Shown: positions 1-22,242, numbered from the stretch's first letter. The stretch: 31,990 nucleotides of DNA from Candidatus Eiseniibacteriota bacterium (GCA_031370785.1 JANMQY010000050.1:1-31990), one strand, 5' to 3'. The notes: generated from the sequence alone by a model not told the origin. Numbers and translations: made by a program.

Positions 1-263
1 AGACGGGCGACTCGACCGCGAACGGCGTCGCGCCACGGCCGAGGAGCACGATCGCGGACGGGCACGGAGCCGCCCGGCTGATTCCATCCGCCATGGCGAC
101 CACCGTTAACGCGGTAATCGCGATCCGCGCCCCGCGCAAGAACTGGTCGCAGGCCGGCCAGCCAGCGAAGGCGAGTGCGGAGCGTGAATATTCGTGGAAA
201 AACATGCAAATACTTTAACGACCTCGCCCCCGACGCGTCCACAGCGATCCGGCGTGTCAGAGG

Positions 264-372
264 GTCGCGCCGTTGACCCGCATGCGCACGATAGAGGCCC
301 GGGTGTAACGCGGCGCCGTTCCCCGCGACCCCACCCCACACCAGGTTCCAGCGTCCGGCTGGATAGCGCTCG
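264..372 (-). pseudogene. Degenerate, frameshifted copy of the C-terminal sorting-domain coding sequence of the 1511..3832 gene
   Basis: Aligns by eye to 1545..1655 with 11 substitutions and a 2-nt deletion (about 88% identity). The minus strand reads ERYPAGRWNLVWGGVAGNGAALHPGL then shifts frame to VRMRVNGATL; the intact copy is ERYPAGRWTVAWSGVAGNAAALHPGLYFVRMRVNGATL. Confidence 0.8.
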
Positions 373-553: not shown

Positions 554-1297
554 TTAGCGGTACAGATTCTTGACTCGTCCCCACGAGCGCGGCATCGCGG
601 GTGTCACCGAGCAGCAGTCGGCGTTCACTCTGAGGTCGAAATCGAATCCCAGGCCTGTGGTCGCGTCACAGTTGTCCGTGATGGTGTCGACGGTCCCGGG
701 CATGACGAAGTACTGTGAACAAGGCGTGCAGCTGAGCATGTTGGCGTACGCGTACTGATCCGCCCCACAGCTCTGGCTCACCATCTCGACCACCAGGAAC
801 GCCTTCCGGGTCAGGCAACATCCGGAGGCGAGCGGCATCAGGTAGTCCTTGGTCACGGACGCGGCGGCTTCCGAGAGCGTGAAGAGCTGGGCCGGGCAGA
901 TCGTTCGCGTGGTGTCCGGGACATCGCAGTTGCCGGTCTGGGTCGCCTCGACCACCGAGACGCGCAGCACCATGGAACAGGCGCTCCGGAACCGCATGCG
1001 GATCACCGCTTCGGTCAGCAATAACCCGCCCGACGAAGCCGGACATTGCGGGCAGGCTGCGGGATCGAGCAACTGGTACATCTTGAGCCGCGACCACGCC
1101 GGACTCAAGAACACGTTGGGGCCCCGGGCCCCGGACTGGCCGATGGTGCAGATCGCGTCCGTCGCAGACGGGGCCTGGACCTGTGCGGGTTCCTTGAATA
1201 TGGAGCCGTGCAGATCGGCGGTTGCGGCTCCGGCGAGGAGTGCCATGGATAGCAGGCTGGAAGCGAAGACGACGCGAGGTGTAGCGTGACGGTTCAT
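554..1297 (-). CDS. Secreted Cys-rich hypothetical protein with C-terminal SWGRVKNLYR tail
   Basis: 247 aa. RBS-like GGGAGAG before the ATG, signal peptide (VVFASSLLSMALLAGAATA), 14 Cys, ends VTPAMPRSWGRVKNLYR*. Confidence 0.85.
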   Translation of the reverse strand: MNRHATPRVVFASSLLSMALLAGAATADLHGSIFKEPAQVQAPSATDAICTIGQSGARGPNVFLSPAWSRLKMYQLLDPAACPQCPASSGGLLLTEAVIRMRFRSACSMVLRVSVVEATQTGNCDVPDTTRTICPAQLFTLSEAAASVTKDYLMPLASGCCLTRKAFLVVEMVSQSCGADQYAYANMLSCTPCSQYFVMPGTVDTITDNCDATTGLGFDFDLRVNADCCSVTPAMPRSWGRVKNLYR

Positions 1298-1510
1298 GAT
1301 CTCTCCCGTACGTTGGTTTTCCTTAAGGAATGGGGGCGCAAGAATGGGACAAGCCGGGAGTGACCTCGGGGGCGGCCGGGCCGGATGGCAGAAGTTGCCG
1401 CCCGCATCCTAGCACCCAACCGTCGTGAAGCAATCCCTCCTTCTTGGCCGTCGACCGACCCGCATTGCCATGACGGTCAGGTCGACCAATACCCGCGCTT
1501 CGGCGCGACG

Positions 1511-3832
1511 CTACTCGATCAGGCTCACGCGCCTTGCGCTCAGCGTCGCGCCGTTGACCCGCATGCGTACGAAATAGAGGCCAGGGTGCAACGCGGCGGC
1601 ATTCCCCGCGACTCCACTCCACGCCACGGTCCAGCGTCCGGCTGGGTAGCGCTCGGGCGCCCCGCGCGCCACCACCCGCCCGGCGACATCGAGCACATCG
1701 AACGCCACCTCCCCGCCCTCATGCAGCGCGAACTCGATCTGTGAGGCGGCGCGCGCGGGATTGGGTGTGATGCCGAGCAATTCGGTGCGCGACGGAATCG
1801 TGGACGGCGCGACCGCCGTCACCGGCGGATTGAGTCCCAATTCGTAGCCGCCGACAACGCCGGGATCGTTGAGAACCACCAGACCCAGCGTCAGGTTTGC
1901 GGGCGCAACGATCGTGGTGTCGTGCCTCACCTCGAACATGGCACTCGAACCCGACTCCCAATAGTCCCCGGTGAAGCTGCGGAAGACCGCGAGCCGATAG
2001 CCGGGAGCAGACGACAGAAAGTGAATCAGGTAGCTCTGTCCCGAAGAGACAATGGCATTCCAGGTCTGGAGCACATCGCCCGCGGCGACCGAACCGATCG
2101 ACACCGGGTCGCCGCTGACGATGGTGTGCGTGGCGGCCGAGCACTCCACCCGGGCGATCGAGCTACCGCTCATCGGAAACGCGCGTGCGAAGAATGGCCC
2201 GGGCGGATTCTTGTGGAAATCAGTGACCACGAAATCCACGCGCGTTGGGGTGTGATCGAAAGATTGTGCCCGCATGTTGTAGAGACAGTCGGGGGTGGCG
2301 TTGACCGGGCCGGTGTCGTATTCCCACACGTCCCAGTCGGTGGCGGCCCGCGCGCCGAATGCGACCCAAGTGAACGCGGTCTGGTTGAACTCGTAGAACT
2401 CGCCCTGGGCAAGCGAGGTGCTCACCGCAACGTTGTTGGCAAGCACTACCGGTGCATGGCAGCTATTCGCCTGGATCGTCATGACGTCGGTGGCGCCATT
2501 TTCGTTCAGCACTGCGAGTCCGTAGTAGCCGGACGCAGGCACGGTGTAGGTCATGGTGCTGGTGGTCACGAATTCCGCCGCACTACGCGCGAGCCACAGG
2601 ATGCTGCCGGTCGGACGGAACAGGAGCATCTTGAGCGCGGCAGGCCCGGAGTGGGTGAGCGAAAAGTCCACGTCCTGCCCAGCCGTGAGGTAAACATCCC
2701 AGATTTGGACCACGTCGCTGGCGTCGGTCGACGCTGTTTCCGGCGGGCCGTTCACGATGATTCCGCTGGGATTGTCGTCGAGGTCGATCGTGGGTGGTCC
2801 CCCGCCAGTGGCAAGGGTCAGCCGGCTGGTCTCGACGTAGTACCGGCTGCCAGGATTGAAGTGGAAGTCTCCGACGATCAGATTGGTGGCGATCTCGTTC
2901 GAGGTCACGAGATTGCCGAAGAAGCAGTCCGGGAACGTGCCCCCGCTCGGACCTGCGGCAACATCCAGCTGATACGCGCTCGTGCCACCACCGCCGCCGC
3001 GAATCGCCACGGTCTCCCAGGACGGGTAGGCGCCGGCGCGGAATTGATAGAAGCCGTATCCGGTCGGCGCGCTCTGCGAAACTCCGCCCACCAGCGTGAC
3101 CGGCGTGTTGCACTGGCCGATCGAGATCGAGTAGGAACCCGACCCTCCGTTGTCGTTCACCACCACGATCGCGTACGAGTCGGTCGTCGGCGGGGAAAAG
3201 TCGAACGATGTCGCGCTCTCGATCAGCGCGGCACTGCGATCCTGCCAGGGCGAGCCTCCGGTATTTCCGAACACCAGCACCCTGGCATTGACGCCGGGGG
3301 TCGCCGCGAAATGGATCCGATAGATCTGGCCGGCGCTGAGCGCGGAATCCCAGACGTGAACGACGTCGCTGGTACCGGTAGCGACGGTCGTGATCTGATC
3401 GTTGAGAAGCAGGTCTCCGCGAGTCGCGTCGAACTCGAGAAACCCGGGCGGCGACGCGGGGCCGAATGCGCGCGTGTAGTAGGTCTGAGGCGGGAGGACG
3501 CGAAAATCCCCCACGACGAAGTTGACTCGCCCCGGCCCGCCGGAAGTCGCAGTGATCGAGCCGGCAACGCATGGCGGAAATGGAAACCAATTCCCGAAGA
3601 GTTCCAGAAGCCAGTTGTTCCCGGGTTGCGAGCGGATCCCGATGGCGCCCCAGTGTCCGGCGCTCGGCGTAAACGAATAGAGCGATGGATTCGCGGTGAC
3701 GGTGAACGTCTGCCCGCTGTTGAGCGGTTGGACGAAGCATTGCGCATCGGCCGTGCCCGCGCTCAGAGTCTGCAGCGCAAGCGCGCACACGGCCACCAAC
3801 TTGCCGAACTGAACTGACGGAGTACGGCTCAT
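1511..3832 (-). CDS. Secreted protein with three ~210-aa beta-rich repeats and a C-terminal T9SS-CTD/FlgD-Ig-like domain
   Basis: Start moved to ATG 3832 (GAGAGGAG RBS upstream), giving 773 aa. Signal peptide ends ADA|Q. C-terminus is PNPARAASQIEFAL...VLDVAGRVV...W...LHPGLYFVRM. Confidence 0.85.
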   Translation of the reverse strand: MSRTPSVQFGKLVAVCALALQTLSAGTADAQCFVQPLNSGQTFTVTANPSLYSFTPSAGHWGAIGIRSQPGNNWLLELFGNWFPFPPCVAGSITATSGGPGRVNFVVGDFRVLPPQTYYTRAFGPASPPGFLEFDATRGDLLLNDQITTVATGTSDVVHVWDSALSAGQIYRIHFAATPGVNARVLVFGNTGGSPWQDRSAALIESATSFDFSPPTTDSYAIVVVNDNGGSGSYSISIGQCNTPVTLVGGVSQSAPTGYGFYQFRAGAYPSWETVAIRGGGGGTSAYQLDVAAGPSGGTFPDCFFGNLVTSNEIATNLIVGDFHFNPGSRYYVETSRLTLATGGGPPTIDLDDNPSGIIVNGPPETASTDASDVVQIWDVYLTAGQDVDFSLTHSGPAALKMLLFRPTGSILWLARSAAEFVTTSTMTYTVPASGYYGLAVLNENGATDVMTIQANSCHAPVVLANNVAVSTSLAQGEFYEFNQTAFTWVAFGARAATDWDVWEYDTGPVNATPDCLYNMRAQSFDHTPTRVDFVVTDFHKNPPGPFFARAFPMSGSSIARVECSAATHTIVSGDPVSIGSVAAGDVLQTWNAIVSSGQSYLIHFLSSAPGYRLAVFRSFTGDYWESGSSAMFEVRHDTTIVAPANLTLGLVVLNDPGVVGGYELGLNPPVTAVAPSTIPSRTELLGITPNPARAASQIEFALHEGGEVAFDVLDVAGRVVARGAPERYPAGRWTVAWSGVAGNAAALHPGLYFVRMRVNGATLSARRVSLIE
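1545..1655. repeat. Intact member of the ~110-bp direct repeat pair (with 264..372)
   Basis: Direct alignment; shared blocks include gtcgcgccgttgacccgcatgcg and tccagcgtccggctgg. Confidence 0.85.
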
Positions 3833-4025
3833 CGAAGCTCCTCTCGAGGCGTGGCAATCCGTGACGAGCATGCGACCGCCGAAGCGTAGCACTCCGGTCG
3901 GGTCGCTTCCTCATTCTCTCGTCCCGATCAATGACGACCGCTTGCGGCAGGAATCACTGCGGATGATCTGCTGACCCTGTGGAAAACAGGGCTCAATTGC
4001 CGCTCGCGCGATTCGACCCCAACAG

Positions 4026-4055
4026 AACGACCACCCCCGGCTGGAGGTGGTCGTT
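4026..4055 (-). terminator. Probable terminator hairpin of the CHRD gene
   Basis: 10-bp inverted repeat AACGACCACC/GGTGGTCGTT about 20 nt after the stop; the U-tail is weak. Confidence 0.55.
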
Positions 4056-4074
4056 GTTGGAAAGTCGCTGTTGC

Positions 4075-4665
4075 CTAGCGGTAGATCGCCTTGATCCGTC
4101 CCCAGGTCGTCTCGGTCGTGGGAGTCGAGGCGGGAACCCAGAATCCGCGGATCTCGCCGCCGGCAGAAGTGCTGGTGTGGATGTTGAGGTAGGCCTTGCC
4201 GTCCGCGATGGCCTGGAACAGGTCCGCCTCCGCCTGAGCCGTTGTCCCGCCGTGGGCGGTCACGTAGCTCGGGTTGTAGCTCGAGGACAGAGTCATGTTC
4301 AACGTAATGTCGTACGTTCCGCTCTTGACCCCGAGCGGGAATCCCGCAAACGTCGGAGTCGTCGTGGCCACACCCGCCGTTCCGGCCCCAGCCACCGCGG
4401 TGGCCGCATGGATATGCGAGGCCGTCGTGTTGCCGGTCAGATTATAGAAGGCCACCTGAAGGCGCATCGTGTGCGCAACGTTGTCTATGTCGACGGTGGC
4501 CGTACCAGCTCCCAGCGACACAACGGGCGGAGACTCATTGGCTCCGCTCAGATTCGTCACGTACTGGAATTGGGCAGCGTGGGCGGAAATGCTCCCAATC
4601 GCAATCGCAGCGACCACGGCGAGAAGTCGGCGCGGACCAAACAGACGGGTTACAAGCATGTTCAC
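4075..4665 (-). CDS. Secreted CHRD-domain protein with C-terminal TWGRIKAIYR tail
   Basis: CHRD motifs LSGANESPP, ASHIH and GKAYLNIHT...GGEIRG. Signal peptide ends AHA|A. GAAAGGAG RBS 8 nt before GTG 4665 (alternative ATG 4659). Confidence 0.9.
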   Translation of the reverse strand: MNMLVTRLFGPRRLLAVVAAIAIGSISAHAAQFQYVTNLSGANESPPVVSLGAGTATVDIDNVAHTMRLQVAFYNLTGNTTASHIHAATAVAGAGTAGVATTTPTFAGFPLGVKSGTYDITLNMTLSSSYNPSYVTAHGGTTAQAEADLFQAIADGKAYLNIHTSTSAGGEIRGFWVPASTPTTETTWGRIKAIYR

Positions 4666-6697: not shown

Positions 6698-9415
6698 TTA
6701 CCGGACGACGACCGCGCGCGTCGTGAGCGTGTGCCTGCCCTGCGACAGGCGCACCAGATAGACCCCCGATGAAAGCGTGCGGCCTTCGGCCAGGTTCAGC
6801 ACGTGACTTCCGGGTCCGAGCGCGCCGACTTCGCGCGTGACCACCATTCGTCCGGCGATGTCCATCACCTCGAGTCGCGCCGGCGAGGAGCCTGGAAGAG
6901 AAAACGCGATCGTGATGTCATTGCGCGCGGGGTTCGGGCGCGCGCCGGCCAGCGCGAACTGCGTGGTTCGCGGGACATCGACCCAGGTCTCACCCATGAA
7001 CGCCTCGCCCCCGGCCCGCTGCAGACCGAGTCGGTATCCGTAGCGCGCTCCGGCCACGACTTCGGAATCCTCGTAGATGATCTCCCCCCTCCCATTGGGC
7101 GAAATCAGGCCGAGTGATCTCCAGCCTTCATTCATCGTTCGCCTGTACACAGTCGCTGCGGCGTAGGACCGATCTGCGCTGAACCAGGTGAGCGTCACGC
7201 GATCCGGCGTGGCCAGCGTGCTCAGGAGCGAGAGCAGTGTGGGTGTGGTCAGATCGCCCATGGCAGCGATGCCGCTTTGTGTTTTGCCCCCCATGGACTT
7301 GAATTGCCCGCCCGCGAAGAGAGTCGACCCGCTGATCGTCAACGCGAGCACCGCGTCCCCAGCGTTGGGATTCCAGATGGTGGCCAGCCCGGTCGTAGTG
7401 TCGAGTGCCGCAAGGTGGTTTCTCGGCTGCGCGCCGATCGTGGAGAATTCCCCGCCCGCATAGACGGCGCTGCCGCTCACCAACACGGCATCGACGTATC
7501 CAGCCGGGTCTGGTTTCCATGTCGCCGGCGCGCCGGTCGTCGCATTCAGCGCGGCGATGTAATTTCGCAGATCGCCTCCGATGGAAGTAAAGTGACCGCC
7601 CACGTAGACGGTCGAACCATTCACGTCCAGGTCGAGCACTTCGGCGTCCGCATCCGCAACGAAGGCGGTCGCGAGGCCGGTCGCGGCATCGAGTCCGGCA
7701 ATCCGGAGCCGGCTCTGCCCGCCGATGGTGGTGAACCGCCCGCCTGCATAGACCGTCGCACCGCCGACCCCGATCGCATTCACGTAGTTGTCGGCGTTCG
7801 GGTCCCAGGCGGTCGCAAGACCGGTAGTCGCATCCAGCTCCGCGATAAAGGTGCGTGTCTGACCACCAATGCTCACGAACTCGCCGCCCGCATAGACGCT
7901 CGTGCCGCTCACCGCCAGGGCGCGGACCGAATCGCTCGCATCCGGGTTCCAGGCGGTGACAGTTCCAGAAGCATCGTCCAGTGCCGCGATGAAATGCCGC
8001 TCCTGACCTCCGATGTTCTGGAAGTCGCCACCCGCATACACCGTTGTCTCGCTCACTTCGAGTGCGCGGATGCCGCCGTCGGCGTTCGGGTTCCACGGTT
8101 TGACGAGGCCAGTGGGGACATCCAGCGCGGCGATGTAGTTCCGAGTCTGCCCGCCGGCAAACGTGAAGTAGCCGCCGGCACAGACCGTCGTTCCACTCAA
8201 CGCAATGGCGAAGACGGCGTCGTTCGTGCCGGGATTCCAGGTGGTCGCGAGCCCGGTTCCGGCATCCAGCGCCCCGAGGTAGCTCCGTGGCTGCCCGCCG
8301 ATGCTGGTGAAATATCCGCCCGCGAATACCGTGGTCCCGCCCACCGCAATGGCTCGGACTTCGGCGCTCGCGTTCGGATTCCAGGCCGTGGCGAGCCCTG
8401 TGCCGTCGTCGAGCGCGGCAAGGAAATCCCGAGACTGCCCGCCGATGCTGGTGAAGCTTCCGCCGGCGTAGACCGTCGTCCCGCTCACCGCGAGATCGAG
8501 AACTCTGCCGTTCGCACCAGGATCCCATGCGGTAGCCAGCCCGGTGCCGTCGTCCAGCGCCGCAATGTTGCTCCGCGGCACTTCGCCGATGCTGGTGAAG
8601 TTCCCACCGGCATAGATGGTGGTCCCGCTTACCGCCAGGGCGTATACCGGGCCGTTGGCAAACGGCGTCCAGCCGGTGGGGAATCCGGTCCCAGCGTCCA
8701 GCGCCGCGACGTAATACCGTATCTGCCCGCCGATGGTGGTGAAGTCACCGCCCACATAGACCCTCGTTCCGCTCACCACCAGCTCGAGAACAGAGCCGTC
8801 CGCGCTCGGGTCCCATGCAGTGGCGAGCCCCATCGCGGTGTCCAGCGCGGCAACAAAAGAACGCGCCTGCGCGCCAACGGTGCCGAAATCTCCCCCGACG
8901 TAGATCGTCGCCCCATCGCGCGCAAGCGTCCAGACGGAGCCATTCGCGTTCGGATTCCAGGGTGAGACGCTATTGTCAGACGTGATGTGCGCGAGGTTCG
9001 ACCTCGAGACCCCACCCACCGCATCAAAGCTGCCGCCAATGAACCAGCCGCCCGATCCGTCCGGCGTCGCCGCCTGCACCGTACCCCTGATCTTGGGGAA
9101 ACCGGCGATCAGGGCGCCGCTCGTGGCATCGATGGCGACGCACGGACCCGTCGCGGGGCCTACTCGCGTGAAGTCGCCGCCAATGTAAAGCGTGTTTCCG
9201 GAGACCACGGCCGCGCGCACTGTTCCATTCGTGACATCGAAGTTTTCGCGAACGATCTGGGCCTCTGCCGACCCATTGCTCAGCGCCGCGGTGACGATCG
9301 CACTCATGACCAGCAGCGCCAATCGAGCCATGACACGCCGCCGTCTCGGCAGAAAGCTACTGGCGAACACACTCACCATCTGCCCCGGGGCAACAGTTCG
9401 TAGCGGCCTCATCAT
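6698..9415 (-). CDS. Secreted beta-propeller repeat protein with an Fn3-like domain and a T9SS-CTD-like C-terminus
   Basis: GGGAGG RBS before ATGATG (9415/9412). Signal peptide ends AEA|Q. 14 repeats of ~48 aa, then TPTLLS...VTLTW...YRL, then ARPNPARNDITIAFSLP...MDIAGR...LSSGVYLVRL. Confidence 0.9.
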   Translation of the reverse strand: MMRPLRTVAPGQMVSVFASSFLPRRRRVMARLALLVMSAIVTAALSNGSAEAQIVRENFDVTNGTVRAAVVSGNTLYIGGDFTRVGPATGPCVAIDATSGALIAGFPKIRGTVQAATPDGSGGWFIGGSFDAVGGVSRSNLAHITSDNSVSPWNPNANGSVWTLARDGATIYVGGDFGTVGAQARSFVAALDTAMGLATAWDPSADGSVLELVVSGTRVYVGGDFTTIGGQIRYYVAALDAGTGFPTGWTPFANGPVYALAVSGTTIYAGGNFTSIGEVPRSNIAALDDGTGLATAWDPGANGRVLDLAVSGTTVYAGGSFTSIGGQSRDFLAALDDGTGLATAWNPNASAEVRAIAVGGTTVFAGGYFTSIGGQPRSYLGALDAGTGLATTWNPGTNDAVFAIALSGTTVCAGGYFTFAGGQTRNYIAALDVPTGLVKPWNPNADGGIRALEVSETTVYAGGDFQNIGGQERHFIAALDDASGTVTAWNPDASDSVRALAVSGTSVYAGGEFVSIGGQTRTFIAELDATTGLATAWDPNADNYVNAIGVGGATVYAGGRFTTIGGQSRLRIAGLDAATGLATAFVADADAEVLDLDVNGSTVYVGGHFTSIGGDLRNYIAALNATTGAPATWKPDPAGYVDAVLVSGSAVYAGGEFSTIGAQPRNHLAALDTTTGLATIWNPNAGDAVLALTISGSTLFAGGQFKSMGGKTQSGIAAMGDLTTPTLLSLLSTLATPDRVTLTWFSADRSYAAATVYRRTMNEGWRSLGLISPNGRGEIIYEDSEVVAGARYGYRLGLQRAGGEAFMGETWVDVPRTTQFALAGARPNPARNDITIAFSLPGSSPARLEVMDIAGRMVVTREVGALGPGSHVLNLAEGRTLSSGVYLVRLSQGRHTLTTRAVVVR
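7253..9229 (-). repeat. 14 tandem coding repeats of ~144 bp (beta-propeller blades)
   Basis: Consensus NGxVxALAVSGTTVYAGGxFTSIGGQxRxxxAALDxxTGLATAWxPxA, counted 14 times (the last is partial). Confidence 0.9.
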
Positions 9416-9740
9416 CGCAACCTCCCTGATCTTGAGTTCAGTTGCCGTCGAACATCGCCGGATGAAATGGAGTCTCTCATCGACTGTGAGAGCAGGTGGC
9501 TCTCGAGAGTCCCGTTTATCCTGGCTCGCGGATTGGATCGCAGGATAACCAGATGGTCGAGCAAATCGCCACCGGGCTCGAATCATGGGCAAACGGACTG
9601 CTTCGCGGGCGGGACCGGCGTTCGCGGCCGACCGGAAATCCGTCCCGATCTTCGCTTCTGTGGCTTCTCGTCGAGGTCTGGGCAATAGTCCCATGCTGAA
9701 AGCTCGGCGCTCTCGTAGCAAATCCAGGGAGGTACGCATC

Positions 9741-10169
9741 ATGAGCATCGTCACGAAGTGGTCGAACTGGGCCCCTCAGCTGCTGAGCGCGCTTCGTATC
9801 GTGGCCGCGTTCATCTTCTTTCTCTCCGGCTCGATGAAGATCCTCGCCTTCCCGGTGGGAATGCCGCCCAACGGTGGTACCGCGACGATCATGACTGAGA
9901 TCTGGATCGGGGGCATCCTCGAACTGGTGGGCGGTGGCCTGCTCCTGCTCGGTCTGTTCACCCGGCCGGTCGCCTTCGTGCTGGCGGGCGAGATGGCGGT
10001 GGCGTACTTCCAGTTTCACGCCCCCAAAGGCTTCTACCCGACGATGAACGGTGGGGTGGCCGCCGTACTGTATTGCTTCCTGTGGCTCTACTTCTCGGCC
10101 GCCGGCCCCGGCCCCTGGAGCCTGGACGCCATGCGGAATTCGAATCCCTCGCCAAGGGTGGCAGGGTGA
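9741..10169 (+). CDS. DoxX family membrane protein
   Basis: GGGAGG RBS and ATG 9741. Motifs LRIVAAFIF...GSMK, ELVGGGLLLLGLFTRPVAFVLAGEMAVAYF and GPGPWSLDA. 142 aa. Confidence 0.92.
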   Translation: MSIVTKWSNWAPQLLSALRIVAAFIFFLSGSMKILAFPVGMPPNGGTATIMTEIWIGGILELVGGGLLLLGLFTRPVAFVLAGEMAVAYFQFHAPKGFYPTMNGGVAAVLYCFLWLYFSAAGPGPWSLDAMRNSNPSPRVAG

Positions 10170-11850: not shown

Positions 11851-13098
11851 TCAGGCGGCGATGCGGAGCTCTGAGCTGTTCGAGGCGACCCGGTAGAGCA
11901 GTTGCGCCAGCGCCGAGGCACCATCGGTCCGCTCGAGACTCGCCTTGATCCTGCGAGCGGTGTCGGCGAAGTGCGGACTCGACAGAACGAACTGGATGGC
12001 CCGCGCGAGTTTCGTCGCGGTCAGGGAGGAGCGCGGTATGGGGCGAACTCCCAGCCCCCGCACGTGAATCTGGTGGCCCCAGTAGAACTGGTCGGCGATG
12101 TGCGGAACGACGATCTGGGGCACCCCGGCGCGCGCGGCCGCCGCGGTGGTTCCGGCGCCGCCATGATGTACCGCGAGGGCGACGCGCGGCAGCAGTCGCG
12201 CGTGAGAGGTCGAGCGAGCCACGAACACGGTGGACGGCAGGTCTTCTCCGCCGAGTCCTCCCCAGCCCGAAAAGATGACGCCGCGGCGGTGGCACAATTC
12301 GAGCGCCTCGACGATCAAGCGCGTCGTGCGCCCCGGATCACCGTTGGGCATGCTCCCGAAGCCGATGTAGACAGGCGGCTCGCCTTCGCCGAGGAAGCGC
12401 TCGAGCTCAGGGCTGAGCGTGCCGTCGGCGGCGAGTGCGAGCGAGCCGGTCTGGACGATCGCGCTGGGTGCGTCGGGCGGCAATCCGCCGAGCGCTCCGT
12501 CCGATGCGACGATCGCGCAGTCGTGCACCAGGTAGCCCGACACATCACGGATGCCGGGAAGGCCCCAGCCGCCCCGGCAACGATTGATGGTGTCTTGAAG
12601 CGTGAACTCGATCCCGCACCGAGCCGCCCGCCACAGGAGTTGGTTGCAGGCATGCGGCAGTGAGAACCACGGGGCGCCGGGCGGCGGATGGAACCGCGAG
12701 GGAATGAGCTGCGGGCAGAACAGCAGAGTCCGATGCGGCACGCCGAGGACCTCGGCGACGGACGGCGCGGCCGCATGCACGCCGGCGACGATCAGGTCCG
12801 CTCCGCGAGCGGCGGCGAGCGTGTGATCGAACGCGAGCTCCGCATCCTCCCGGAGATACCGCACGGACGACGAGAGGAATCGAGCGGGGTCGTCGATCAT
12901 CGCGCCGTGGTTCCGGATCCACGCTTCGATGTCGAGTCCGACCGCGTGGAACTCCAGTCCTTGCCCTCGCACCCAGTCCGCGAAACCGGCCGACGCGCCG
13001 ATGACGACCTCGTGCCCGTCGGCGCGCAGCCGGGTCCCGAGAGCTACCATGGGCTGGACGTCGCCCCTGGTTCCGAACGCTGCGAGCAGGATTCTCAT
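11851..13098 (-). CDS. GT-B glycosyltransferase, family 1 (sterol/glycopeptide glycosyltransferase-like)
   Basis: 415 aa; motifs GTRGDVQP, PVYIGFGSM and HHGGAGTTAAAARAGVPQIVVPHIADQFYWG. Confidence 0.93.
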   Translation of the reverse strand: MRILLAAFGTRGDVQPMVALGTRLRADGHEVVIGASAGFADWVRGQGLEFHAVGLDIEAWIRNHGAMIDDPARFLSSSVRYLREDAELAFDHTLAAARGADLIVAGVHAAAPSVAEVLGVPHRTLLFCPQLIPSRFHPPPGAPWFSLPHACNQLLWRAARCGIEFTLQDTINRCRGGWGLPGIRDVSGYLVHDCAIVASDGALGGLPPDAPSAIVQTGSLALAADGTLSPELERFLGEGEPPVYIGFGSMPNGDPGRTTRLIVEALELCHRRGVIFSGWGGLGGEDLPSTVFVARSTSHARLLPRVALAVHHGGAGTTAAAARAGVPQIVVPHIADQFYWGHQIHVRGLGVRPIPRSSLTATKLARAIQFVLSSPHFADTARRIKASLERTDGASALAQLLYRVASNSSELRIAA

Positions 13099-18651: not shown

Positions 18652-21600
18652 CTATCTCAGCAGCGCCATCTTCCTCTGTTGCGTGACCTTGCCGACCTGA
18701 AGCCGGTAGAAGTAGACGCCGGTCGTGAGTCCCCTTGCGTCGACCTGAACCCGATAACTCCCGGGAGTCTGGTACCGGTCGACCAGGGTCTGCACCATGC
18801 GGCCCTGAATATCGTAGAGGCTGAGGACCACCTTCTGCGCAGTCGGAATGGCGTATGCGATCTCGGTCGCGCGACGGAACGGGTTCGGGGCGTTCTGCGC
18901 GAGCGACACGATGCCCGACAGGTTGGGCCCGATCCTCTCGACGCCGACCGTAACGGAATCGGTGCCGCCGAACTGGTAGTAACGGGCCAGGAACTCCTGC
19001 AGGTACTGGTTGGTGGTGTCGAAGTCCCGGATGATCAGCGTGTTCTCGTTGTTCGAGTTCTCCGCCGAGCTCGACCAGTTGTGAGAGCCGGTCAGCGTGA
19101 CCGCGTTGTATTGCGGGGACTCCGCATCCACGATGCAGTACTTGTGGTGCAGCAGCCCGGACGCTCCGGTCTTGAGCCGGACGTCCACTCCATTCGCGAC
19201 CAGGTTCGAGTACTCCGATCCTGTGTCGGTGCCGTTGTCGAGATCTCCGCGGACCTTGATCCCGGCGGTTTTCTTCGCGATGAGCGAGCTCGCAATGTCC
19301 GAGCGGGTGAGCGTCAACAGCTGGAATCCAACTGAGTGCTGCGCTCCGTTGATGAGCGAGACGATCTGAGACGTCACGCCATCGGACGGACTGAAGTAGC
19401 TTTCGATGTTTCGCCCGCCGATCAGGAACCGGTGGGGCGTGTCGTCGAGCTTGCGCGCGCCGAATCGCGAAACCGATGCGTTCGGAGTGTCGGTGCTGCT
19501 CCCCCACATCTCGTTGAACTCGAGCGTGTATGCATTGGCGAGCGCCTGGTCCTGGATCTCGACCGCATTCTGGAAGTCGTTGTTGGTGCCCGGGTCGGTC
19601 GGATTCCAGGAGCCGGTCCAGACCCAGATGCTCTCGGGCGCGCCGGCACGGGCATCGATGACGAAGAACTTGTTGTGCATGAGGCCGAGGCCGTTGTTGA
19701 TCGGATCGAGGCGATCGGTGATGAAGGGAATGCCGCTCGAGGCGATCGCGTTAAACGCGGTGGTGCTCTTGTTGTCGTCCTCGCAGATGAGGCGAACCTT
19801 CACTCCCCGGTTCTTGGCGTTGATGAGAGCGTTTGAGAGCAAGGTGCCCGGACTTCCGCTCAGGCTGTAGAGCGCGACGTCGATCGAGCGCTTCGCGTTG
19901 TCGATGTGGGGAATGAGCAGGGACGGCAGATTCTGGTTGCCGTTCGCCTCGTGCAGCCACGCGACGCTTACGTTCACACTCTTGTTGAAGTACACGTGCA
20001 GCTGGCCGGTGGACTGCGCGGGCGATGCGGTGCTGAACATGCGGGTCGAGGAGAAATTGGTCCCGTTCGCATCGCCCGATCCCACGCTGTAGTGGTAGGC
20101 GGTCGCGGGGTTGAGCCCGCCCACCGTCACTGTGTGGACAGTAACCGGCGTGGAATCGACGACGCTGTCTCCGAACGCCGGGGTCGTCCCGTAGTGAACG
20201 ATGCTCGAAGAGGCGACGTCGGTGGTCCAGTGGAGCTGGACCGAGGTCGGCTGCAGGTTGTCTTCGTAGGGAGCGGTCAGAATGATCGGACCCGGATGCG
20301 CGATGATGTCGGCCGGCGTGCGCGGCGAGATCTCGTAGTCCGCTGTGTACGGAGGCCCGGGAGCGGGAGTGCCGGGCTTGAACTGCTTCAGTATCCCGAT
20401 CACGTCGAACACACTCGGTGTCGGCGGGTAGGTGTTCGGGATGAAAATGTTGGTAGTGCCCGACGCGTCAGTGATGGTCGAGGTCGTCGCGTTGTACGTC
20501 ACGCCATTGATGCGAATGAGCCGCCCCTCGTTTGGTTCCGTGTAGTCCGGCTTGAAGGTGGCGTTGACGTCGGCGCAATTGAGGACCATCGGCTCGGGAA
20601 CCGGCCGCCCGGTGGCGTGCCGGACTAGCAGCGAGAAGTCCGGCTGAATCTCGGTGAGGCCACGGAATTGAAGGATGGAGCCGGTGACCGTGATGCTGTC
20701 TCCCGGAGCCAGAGTGAGCGGCCCGAGGCTCGCATTGAACAGATTGATGCCGGCCGTTCCGTCCTGGACGTAGACGTCGGTCCGCACGTCGCTGAAGTTG
20801 ACGGTGACGACGCCGGTCACGGTGGCCTCATCGCCGACCGCGTACGGGGAGGCCGCGACGCCGTTCGAGCTGTTCACGTGGACCACGACGATAGGCACGA
20901 GCTCGAAGACGCGAACGCTCGGATGCTTCGTGATCGGTGTGAGCGTGCCGGCGGCGACCGAGGTGCTGACGAAGAACGTGGTGTTTCCCTTGGTCGCGGG
21001 AGTCGTGAGGTTCGCGATCGAGACCGTGCCGCTGTCGGTCGGGCTGATCGATGCCTGGGAGACGAAGATCGTGTCCCCGTTCACCGACGCCACCGCGGAC
21101 GCGAAGGCCGTTCCCGCCAGGGTCAGCGATGCCACCTGGTGCGACCAGGTCCACACCGGCGGTACTACAATCCTGAGGTTGGTCAGCGTGTACGCGGAGT
21201 CCTGAGCGAAGGAGAGCGTTAGCGTGTCGAGCGCGCGATCCGAGAAAACCGTGACCGGGATCACGCGCGCGCGACCGCTGCCGTTGCCGCCGGATGCGAA
21301 GGTCGGCTCGGGCGAAGTCGAAGCGTTCTGCGGGTTCCGGCCATGCGTCTGCGCGACATAGTCCGCGCCATTGTTGTTGGTATCCTGGCCGTTGCCGAGC
21401 AGCTCATGTGCGCCGCCGGCCGCGAGCGAGTCCGCCGTGGATGAGGCGAGCGCCTTGCGCTCGACGCTGTTTCCGTTGGCAGTGGTCCCGTGGTTCGGGG
21501 CCGCGACGCCGCCCTCGGGATCGATCGCGGTGCCCCAGCCGACCTTGTCGACCTCGATCGACGCTGCATCGATGATCCGCACGTGACCGTTATCGGCCAT

Positions 21601-21966
21601 TCCGGTCCCTGAGGTCCATAGCCCCGAGGAGAAGTCGGGAGTGACCGAGCCGATGTAGGAAGTGTTGGCGAGCAGGAAGAATCCGTGCGCCGGAATCGAC
21701 GAATTCGCCGGCAGCACCACCCGATCGTTCCAGATCGTTCCCGAGAACGACTTGTACTGAAGCTTCCAGCCCGCAATGTTGATCGGGCTCGCGGTCGGAT
21801 TGTAGAGTTCGACGAATTCGTCCGTGGCTGCCGAGGGACCTCGAGTCGCGAACTCGCTGATGACCACGTGGTTCGCCGCGGCTCGAGCCGTCGGAACCGC
21901 CCCCACGGTCAGTGTCACGGCTGTCAACAGGGCGAGAGCGCTGTAAGTTCGGGGCAATGGATGCAT
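18652..21966 (-). CDS. Secreted multidomain PLD-superfamily enzyme (lamin-tail, OB-fold, Fn3-like, two HKD motifs, T9SS-CTD-like), probable nuclease or phospholipase
   Basis: Lamin-tail motifs HVVISEF...DEFVELYNPT...GWKL. OB-fold YVQDGTAGI...GDSITVTG...GLTEI. HKD motifs HNKFFVID and HHKYCIVD, each followed by TGSxN. C-terminal QNAPNPF...YDIQGR...GVYFYRL. Start ATG 21966 is preferred (alternative 22023). Confidence 0.9.
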   Translation of the reverse strand: MHPLPRTYSALALLTAVTLTVGAVPTARAAANHVVISEFATRGPSAATDEFVELYNPTASPINIAGWKLQYKSFSGTIWNDRVVLPANSSIPAHGFFLLANTSYIGSVTPDFSSGLWTSGTGMADNGHVRIIDAASIEVDKVGWGTAIDPEGGVAAPNHGTTANGNSVERKALASSTADSLAAGGAHELLGNGQDTNNNGADYVAQTHGRNPQNASTSPEPTFASGGNGSGRARVIPVTVFSDRALDTLTLSFAQDSAYTLTNLRIVVPPVWTWSHQVASLTLAGTAFASAVASVNGDTIFVSQASISPTDSGTVSIANLTTPATKGNTTFFVSTSVAAGTLTPITKHPSVRVFELVPIVVVHVNSSNGVAASPYAVGDEATVTGVVTVNFSDVRTDVYVQDGTAGINLFNASLGPLTLAPGDSITVTGSILQFRGLTEIQPDFSLLVRHATGRPVPEPMVLNCADVNATFKPDYTEPNEGRLIRINGVTYNATTSTITDASGTTNIFIPNTYPPTPSVFDVIGILKQFKPGTPAPGPPYTADYEISPRTPADIIAHPGPIILTAPYEDNLQPTSVQLHWTTDVASSSIVHYGTTPAFGDSVVDSTPVTVHTVTVGGLNPATAYHYSVGSGDANGTNFSSTRMFSTASPAQSTGQLHVYFNKSVNVSVAWLHEANGNQNLPSLLIPHIDNAKRSIDVALYSLSGSPGTLLSNALINAKNRGVKVRLICEDDNKSTTAFNAIASSGIPFITDRLDPINNGLGLMHNKFFVIDARAGAPESIWVWTGSWNPTDPGTNNDFQNAVEIQDQALANAYTLEFNEMWGSSTDTPNASVSRFGARKLDDTPHRFLIGGRNIESYFSPSDGVTSQIVSLINGAQHSVGFQLLTLTRSDIASSLIAKKTAGIKVRGDLDNGTDTGSEYSNLVANGVDVRLKTGASGLLHHKYCIVDAESPQYNAVTLTGSHNWSSSAENSNNENTLIIRDFDTTNQYLQEFLARYYQFGGTDSVTVGVERIGPNLSGIVSLAQNAPNPFRRATEIAYAIPTAQKVVLSLYDIQGRMVQTLVDRYQTPGSYRVQVDARGLTTGVYFYRLQVGKVTQQRKMALLR

Positions 21967-22242
21967 GGTTGGGCTCGCTCGAGGGGGAGACAGGGCGTGG
22001 GAATGGACGGAATGGCGCGCCACGAGCGTAGCACGCGACCGTGCCCCATCGGAAGACTCATGAGTGCAGACATACCGCCGGTTCCATGCGATACAAGGCG
22101 ATGCTCATGGTGCTCGCGCACCAGAGCCGCAGCGGCGAGGCGGGTGGGCCGCTGCGCTGGCTGGCGTCCTGATTCGAGCCGTGTCGTTCGAAGTGCGGCG
22201 CGCCGCGATTCAACTCGAACGCCGGAAGTCAGATGCCGACGT

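Follow-up and report, generated by a model that had tools for sequence, protein, structure and literature searches.

A short C-terminal tail on unrelated exported proteins of Eisenbacteria and other diderm lineages, with an NTF2-like lipoprotein as its candidate receptor

C-terminal signals on exported proteins are known from the PEP-CTERM/exosortase, LPXTG/sortase and MYXO-CTERM systems, in which a short conserved motif on many secreted proteins is followed by a transmembrane helix and a basic cluster, and in which transpeptidation is used. A second solution is the C-terminal domain (CTD) of type IX secretion systems (T9SS), which in the known cases, according to PMC12618676, is a folded domain of ~100–235 amino acids (aa). 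The literature places the PorU cleavage site between T/E/D/N and G/A/S (PMC10202324) and describes type B CTDs as probably not cleaved (PMC10202324; PMC12618676). The element reported here, the TWG tail, is a peptide of 15–17 residues that ends two unrelated secreted proteins in a stretch of 31,990 nucleotides from Candidatus Eiseniibacteriota bacterium (GCA_031370785.1 JANMQY010000050.1:1-31990; this whole stretch is called the window hereafter). The original prediction, made from that stretch alone, took the tail for a swappable export or anchoring signal without a transmembrane helix and with no assigned machinery. The present analysis shows that this C-terminal tag is real and widespread, not described so far in the sources searched, and that it has a specific candidate receptor, the lipoprotein LpB.

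Translation of the window confirmed both tails, with the same spacing, on a Cys-rich protein and a CHRD-domain protein (Table 1), and both proteins have signal-peptide-like starts, a call made throughout by our own heuristic and not by SignalP. The CHRD domain stops ~6 residues ahead of the tail, and among the matches listed for its close homologues the tail is kept at the end of 120/120 (115 with the strict pattern, five with T or A at W+3), with no exchange for a CTD; such swaps were found only in the wider comparison given below. Scans of 15 tailed cargo proteins (the two window proteins and 13 others) gave no Pfam or NCBIfam match over the tail, the type B models TIGR04131 and PF13585 included, and the type A models TIGR04183 and PF18962, which describe an Ig-like domain of ~80–100 aa, match neither tailed window protein.

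All six frames of the genome (G000; 3.44 Mb, 68% GC, 100% complete) were searched for the motif. The pattern [TV]-P-x4-[ST]-W-G-x-[LIV]-K-x-x-Y-R-stop closes 34 open reading frames (ORFs) and is internal in none. The core [ST]WG.[ILVM]K gave 32 six-frame matches, of which 29 lie four residues from the stop, two lie five residues from it and one is truncated at a contig end, with no internal match; one of the 29 is a 49-aa ORF without Y-R that looks like chance, and 30 full motifs remain. A position-specific scoring matrix added four further degenerate copies (one weak match, on contig C84, was set aside), while a looser pattern brought LpB itself into the list of proteins with the tail. The profile of the 34 tails has T/V at W-7, P at W-6 (30/34), T/V/A at W-5 and S/T at W-1, followed by W-G-x-[LIV]-K-x-x-Y-[RHK]. 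A chance or artefactual origin was ruled out by the placement next to the stop and by a reversed-pattern control, which matched once in 151 genomes. Two of the tailed proteins (C72:6572-7204 and C105:936-1676, one of them cut by a contig end) are 95% identical, either because the gene was duplicated recently or because the assembly contains variants from different strains.

The proteins carrying the tail have the appearance of exported cargo. With any start allowed, a signal-peptide-like start was found on 31/31 complete tail ORFs, the other three being cut by contig ends; under a uniform rule it was found on 25/28 tail genes and 83/95 CTD genes, compared with 631/2410 other genes. The passengers are unrelated and include NHL propellers, CHRD domains, dockerin-like domains and domains of no named kind. 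A transmembrane window past residue 45 occurs in only 1/28 tail proteins, and only eight residues follow the W, which bears out the predicted lack of a membrane helix. Moreover, the cargo is small: with starts chosen manually, its median is 247 and its maximum 336 aa (n = 31), whereas CTD proteins have a median of 690 aa (n = 97). The tail genes are scattered over the genome, and no recurrent, dedicated neighbour was seen by eye, porP/sprF having been judged without a PorP model scan. The tail is thus found on far more than two proteins, confined to C-termini in this genome and much rarer on proteins lacking an export signal, and the expectation of a swappable extreme C-terminal signal holds genome-wide, an export or anchoring role being the probable meaning.

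The tail is also widespread outside this genome. A strict pattern at the DNA level matched in 143/151 genomes of the same phylum, with up to 68 matches per genome, while one family of that phylum (f7) has only 0–5 tail copies. Scanning 3 of the 64 parts of GTDB gave 128 loci (~2,900 stretches in all), all but two of which are tails, the two being chance matches; the lineages among them include Eisenbacteria, Krumholzibacteria, Latescibacteria and Poribacteria, and the tail occurs in at least four lineages besides its own phylum. Poribacteria have the variant A-V-E-P-x-x-K-L-[AT]-T-T-W-[GA]-x-[LIV]-K plus 1–7 residues, and in two of their genomes the motif is again terminal, in 30/30 distinct motifs read in G152 (30 loci of 60 matches) and in 27/29 in G189, where two lie within long unrelated ORFs. 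The original prediction was therefore right to place similar tails in Eisenbacteria, Krumholzibacteria and Poribacteria, and in the databases and papers searched no machinery is assigned to them. In the literature, searched by titles and abstract openings with subscription papers and supplements outside the search, neither the tail nor the lipoprotein pair introduced below is described; the accessible part of PMC3909097, which reports TIGR04183 in Poribacteria without structural Por genes, has no such tail. As well, 12 of 15 pattern matches on IMG/VR viral contigs (L500-L514) are tails at ORF ends, and most of these ORFs have signal-like starts; tail-bearing hosts may have phages or prophages that carry tagged proteins, host flanks being the alternative source.

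The candidate receptor is one member of a lipoprotein pair, LpA and LpB, encoded in G000 in an operon with a predicted outer-membrane barrel, for which the usual gene order is metG-tatD-rsmA-barrel-lpA-lpB, gene names being taken from sequence likeness. The two lipoproteins are homologues of each other (hhalign 94.8%). The fold predicted for LpB is NTF2-like, with a confidence (predicted local distance difference test, pLDDT) of 86.5 and with 3rob_A as the best match in Foldseek and VIA (Z 14.2, root-mean-square deviation (rmsd) 1.8, 121 residues), a likeness of fold only; no solved sequence relative of the family was found, and in the ESM Atlas LpB falls only into nameless clusters (0.96). 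In G000, the C-terminus of LpB reads MWGHLKVWFR, and that of the LpB paralogue on contig C23 reads TWCDLKTQYR. LpB homologues in close kin of G000 carry degenerate tails after a low-complexity linker (32/120 strict, the others looser by eye). In most other lineages a cis TWG-like helix is present on LpA, ~10 residues past the last strand, where LpB ends, and the groove of this tail-less LpB would, in the models, be left open. Two lipoprotein paralogues (L232:1045-1701 and L246:815-1501) end in two tandem TWG-like motifs.

A complex of the LpB core (residues 36–203) with the last 32 residues of the CHRD protein (163–194) was modelled along with three controls. The score was 0.76, against 0.02 for the best control, with at least 84% of contacts agreeing between runs and a partner pLDDT of at least 59; the mark applied is passed by 116/157 solved and 2/215 mismatched pairs, rough counts obtained with our own alignments. 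The modelled interface is exactly P180-R194, as a strand and a helix, which would account for the ungapped spacing of the tail; the last 15 residues of the tail of the Cys-rich protein (window positions 557–601) correspond to this segment and would be expected to dock likewise. In the model, T184-W186 run along LpB residues 159–160, W186 contacts F72, I160 and D199, and the LpB helix 95–103 is packed against by I189 and Y193. D199 is D in 115/115 close and 47/49 distant family members, the most conserved position after the lipidated Cys, and F72, L103 and I151 are hydrophobic in 49/49 distant members.

The barrel of 712 aa upstream of lpA-lpB is predicted to be plugless and to have 28 strands (pLDDT 88), with a C-alpha diameter of ~52 Å compared with ~66 Å for 36 strands, both calculated with an assumed shear. 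Its best Foldseek matches are MtrB (6r2q_B, template-modelling score 0.40) and LptD (8h1r_D, 0.24), at ~10% identity and an rmsd of 18–23 Å. No Pfam or NCBIfam family matches it above cut-off, and the ESM Atlas places it only in nameless clusters (0.94–0.95), a weak recognition below threshold. The barrel was found in 36/36 genomes tested of the same phylum.

In the Zixibacteria phylum, the distribution of the tail follows the lipoprotein pair and not the T9SS translocon protein SprA. SprA matches there in 41/41 genomes and tails are not expanded; the lipoprotein pair is present in 12/41 (E < 1e-20), and the barrel in the same 12 (one further match, at 9.7e-4, was disregarded). Each of these 12 genomes also has, at an unlinked locus, one complete secreted protein of ~140 aa ending in TWGKIKALF[KR] before the stop, the other tail-pattern matches of the phylum being internal or in short ORFs apart from one contig-edge fragment. 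SprA alone therefore does not predict the tail, which answers the proposal to profile the tail against T9SS components; a T9SS could nonetheless be required. In a RecA tree covering 40 of these genomes (G200 had no RecA match), 11 positives stand in four places, which requires at least four changes, compared with 9.8 on average after shuffling. Among 121 Bacteroidota-phylum genomes, 47 have the lipoprotein family, mostly as a pair, and 5/5 lipoprotein-positive genomes tested hold one protein ending in V[KR]RTWGS[IL]KAMF, of ~135 aa (in one genome 99 aa when counted from the first ATG). A tail-less family member is present in 41/41 Poribacteria-phylum genomes. Detection depended on the profile: Poribacteria and many f7 genomes escaped the narrow LpB profile A1 (47/68), the broad A4 recovered most, and G189 was reached only through the G152 protein. 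The single Bacteroidota-phylum cargo (L487, L488, L490, L495, L479) is a conserved protein whose domain we take to be FN3-like; the Zixibacteria-phylum cargo has a different, equally conserved domain and, in the loci read, adjoins a rex-like gene.

Taken as a whole, these results favour, with a probability of roughly 60%, a tag-and-socket sorting signal in which the tail is captured by LpB as the likely receptor. A tailed protein would be exported through Sec to the periplasm, where LpB would capture the tail non-covalently; cis tail-like helices of LpA, and in G000 also of LpB, might gate the socket and be displaced by cargo. LpB would then direct the tagged protein onward, to the outer membrane or the surface of the cell. 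The way across that membrane might be the 28-strand barrel, a tentative choice slightly favoured because of the operon link and the ceiling on cargo size, or a hand-over to SprA, a little less probable and considered because T9SS genes are present in the tail-rich genomes tested and no barrel was detected in Poribacteria; the remaining probability falls to retention on the lipoprotein. Cleavage by PorU would probably not occur. The fullest form of this proposal, a new export system of at least five diderm lineages, uncultured or little studied, with a 15-residue tag, a self-gated NTF2-like lipoprotein socket, a dedicated 28-strand barrel and a small-cargo route that exchanges passengers with the T9SS beside it, is doubtful as a whole.

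Several observations weigh against the tag-and-socket proposal. LpB has a similar cis tail of its own, so that the passing model shows that such a peptide fits the groove and not that cargo binds there in cells, and the partner pLDDT in the complex is only ~60. G000 would moreover lack a permanently open socket, since LpB and the C23 paralogue both end in their own tail. In the Zixibacteria phylum, G171 has the contig-edge tail fragment (23 aa) and no lipoprotein or barrel match, and related genomes are not independent, so that the test amounts to ~4 events on a one-gene tree. The tail check in the Bacteroidota phylum covered 5 of the 47 lipoprotein-positive genomes and, among the negatives, only G197, which was at control level. 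Six f7 genomes as well as G035 and G091 have lipoprotein matches (that of G125 weak, E 0.0056) and no strict tail. No barrel match was obtained in G152 and G189, complete Poribacteria chromosomes with 45–67 motif matches, and none adjoins the lipoprotein pair in 12 Bacteroidota-phylum loci. Finally, T9SS genes are present in the tail-rich genomes tested, with SprA matches in 41/47 genomes reached through tail loci.

This last point leads to the rival that survives best, though it is unlikely, namely that a PorV-family shuttle or SprA directly recognises the tail as a miniature T9SS signal, which PorU or a PorU paralogue would cleave, the lipoproteins being bystanders or cargo. G000 encodes SprA (528.7 bits, cut-off 200) and PorU (466.2, cut-off 420) beside PorV, four genes above the NF033709 cut-off for the PorV family (191.1 against 90; PorV equivalog 133, under 250), four C25 matches and 109 CTD ORFs. 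Of the genomes without a SprA match, which include G162 and G163, the tail-rich G164 has PorV and C25; in both complete Poribacteria chromosomes the SprA match is weak, on ORFs of ~2,240 aa. Tail and CTD are mutually exclusive (0/18,191 ORFs with both), and on homologous passengers they are exchanged at the same junction in 7/15 pairs found, from three domain groups (L078 and G000 C147, 38% identity over 193 aa; L093 and C100, 30% over 171 aa; five Poribacteria proteins and L168, 24–28%). In addition, the linker before the W ([VT]-[PASG]-[TVA]-[ER]; A-V-E-P in Poribacteria) resembles CTD linkers, and an xGV-type motif occurs in 9/25 Poribacteria tails against one control. The miniature-signal explanation is weakened because SprA fails to predict the tail, which among the 41 Zixibacteria-phylum genomes is confined to the 12 that carry the lipoprotein pair, and because the PorU site is not enriched ahead of the tail, where P stands at W-6 in most G000 tails; the size of the folded CTDs described at the outset also speaks against it. 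PorU-type sites were counted in 7/33 linkers against 4/33 in G000 and in 21/118 against 15/118 in the GTDB sample, so that PorU-type cleavage in the tail linker is unsupported by the enrichment counts; the same pattern in CTD linkers is also without enrichment in G000 (13 against 17 of 87) and reaches 30/51 in G172.

Less probable still is that the tail is a stable non-covalent tether, with LpA and LpB paired through the tail of LpA and cargo having co-opted the socket to stay in the periplasm or outer membrane. This would suit the adjacent tailed LpA and tail-less LpB in Zixibacteria- and Bacteroidota-phylum genomes showing only one tailed cargo, as well as the barrel being undetected in Poribacteria and beside the pair in the Bacteroidota-phylum loci. 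A ratio of 34–68 cargo genes to 2–3 socket genes per genome, however, fits a transient receptor better than a tether, and NHL, CHRD and LamG passengers elsewhere end in surface signals, as the CTD swaps indicate; the NHL passenger also resembles the PEP-CTERM protein ScyF (212.8 bits, under cut-off), and a tether leaves the ceiling on cargo size unexplained. Direct binding of a basic amphipathic helix to the membrane, lipopolysaccharide or S-layer without a protein receptor is very improbable: W, L/I, L and Y do share one helix face of the tail with K and R alongside, but W-G-x-h-K-x-x-Y at a fixed spacing from the upstream P exceeds what lipid binding needs, and neither the 12/41 concordance with the lipoprotein pair nor the docking model is explained.

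The positions of the tails, of the genes around them and of the lipoprotein operon are collected in Table 1. Window positions 261–372 hold a degenerate copy, 88–89% identical, of the 3' CTD-coding end of the 1511–3832 gene (compare 1542–1655), in two blocks with a 2-base shift between them, probably the remnant of a duplicated CTD gene. The window also encodes a family 1/28-type glycosyltransferase (11851-13098, minus strand) with a sub-cut-off likeness to the rifamycin glycosyltransferase Rgt (187 of 800 bits).

Table 1. Features of the window and of the lpA-lpB operon in genome G000.
Feature	Position	Strand	Remarks
Cys-rich secreted protein with TWG tail, 247 aa	554..1297	-	weak DUF7451 match, 26.1 bits, below cut-off 27
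Predicted Sec signal peptide of the Cys-rich protein, residues 1-27, ending A-T-A	1217..1297	-	sequence and own heuristic
TWG tail 1, VTPAMPRSWGRVKNLYR + stop	554..607	-	ends the Cys-rich protein
Secreted protein, 773 aa, between both tail genes, FlgD-type T9SS CTD instead of a tail	1511..3832	-	TIGR04183 E 8.6e-4 (under cut-off), PF13860 E 2.5e-5
CHRD-domain secreted protein with TWG tail, 194 aa, ATG at 4659	4075..4659	-	PF07452 E 2.6e-18, residues 34-173
Predicted Sec signal peptide of the CHRD protein, residues 1-28, ending A-H-A	4576..4659	-	sequence and own heuristic
TWG tail 2, STPTTETTWGRIKAIYR + stop	4075..4128	-	P180-R194 (4078-4122) is the entire predicted LpB interface
Beta-propeller protein with T9SS type A CTD	6698..9754	-	TIGR04183 36.7 bits, above cut-off 23
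Secreted LTD and PLD-nuclease protein with T9SS CTD	18652-22023	-	profile matches
LpB, NTF2-like lipoprotein	G000 C133:85639-86397		lpA-lpB operon with barrel
LpA, lipoprotein	G000 C133:86421-87068		lpA-lpB operon with barrel
Predicted barrel, 712 aa, upstream of lpA-lpB	G000 C133:87065-89203		operon span 85639-89203

The T9SS of these genomes has features of its own. GldM (TIGR03517) gave no match in G000, G152, G172 and G206, was matched in the control G197, and could escape in divergent forms; these four SprA-bearing genomes possibly have a T9SS without the known motor. An operon at G000 C142:9194-25806 (L009) contains porU and porV and continues with a CTD protein, nameless proteins of 263 and 314 aa, an NHL protein, a 1118-aa protein of which one stretch is weakly SprA-like (E 1.3e-6), and an Omp85/POTRA protein, members that are possibly lineage-specific T9SS parts. 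Three other operons (G000 C16:6579-13234, C32:37028-47807 and C133:77139-84076) each combine a TonB-dependent receptor, a large secreted protein, mostly of CTD type, and a PorV-family paralogue, which suggests one dedicated shuttle per operon.

The tag is carried by ~1% of the G000 genes and is named in no database searched. If LpB is indeed its receptor, a short peptide docked non-covalently in a lipoprotein, possibly with its own translocon, would be a new principle of bacterial sorting, the surface proteomes of Eisenbacteria, Krumholzibacteria, Latescibacteria and the sponge-symbiotic Poribacteria could be predicted from sequence, and a candidate second outer-membrane route would exist in cells whose T9SS shows no GldM match. 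The signal would be categorically new if the socket holds, and a new accessory signal of the T9SS if the miniature-signal explanation holds instead. A minimal version with one cargo is present in Bacteroidota-phylum genomes, and a tag of 15 residues together with so small a receptor could serve as a display or affinity pair.

Among known systems, the T9SS type A CTD (TIGR04183, PF18962; in the FlgD-Ig form PF13860 here) is similar in its extreme C-terminal position on unrelated Sec-exported passengers, in the junction used and in the presence of T9SS genes in tail-bearing genomes. It differs in being a seven-strand Ig domain, while the tail is a peptide with a predicted NTF2-like lipoprotein partner, no enriched PorU site and a distribution that does not follow SprA, in genomes of which those scanned for GldM had no match. 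The type B CTD (TIGR04131, PF13585), with PorP/SprF, offers the precedent of a second signal class with its own receptor in T9SS-bearing cells, but it spans 150–235 aa and its shuttle gene is often next door, whereas the tail genes are scattered; the type B shuttle has 14 strands, and the lipoprotein proposed as the tail's receptor is encoded beside a predicted 28-strand barrel. PEP-CTERM, LPXTG and MYXO-CTERM share with the tail a short conserved C-terminal motif with a basic end on many secreted proteins, and differ by their transmembrane helix and transpeptidation, in place of which the tail is predicted to dock non-covalently. MtrB-MtrA and LptD-LptE, in which a partner is lodged in the barrel, likewise combine a wide outer-membrane barrel with lipoprotein partners, while the barrel here has 28 predicted strands without a plug and only a generic barrel likeness to them. 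Donor-strand complementation and exchange, in type V pili and chaperone-usher systems, have in common with the tail a terminal peptide that completes the groove of another chain, with a cis copy displaceable by a trans copy; here a strand and a helix would enter an NTF2-like fold, and the unrelated, non-pilin cargo points to tagging and not to polymerisation. The tail thus resembles a C-terminal sorting signal, and it stands outside the T9SS CTDs of types A and B and the sortase-type signals.

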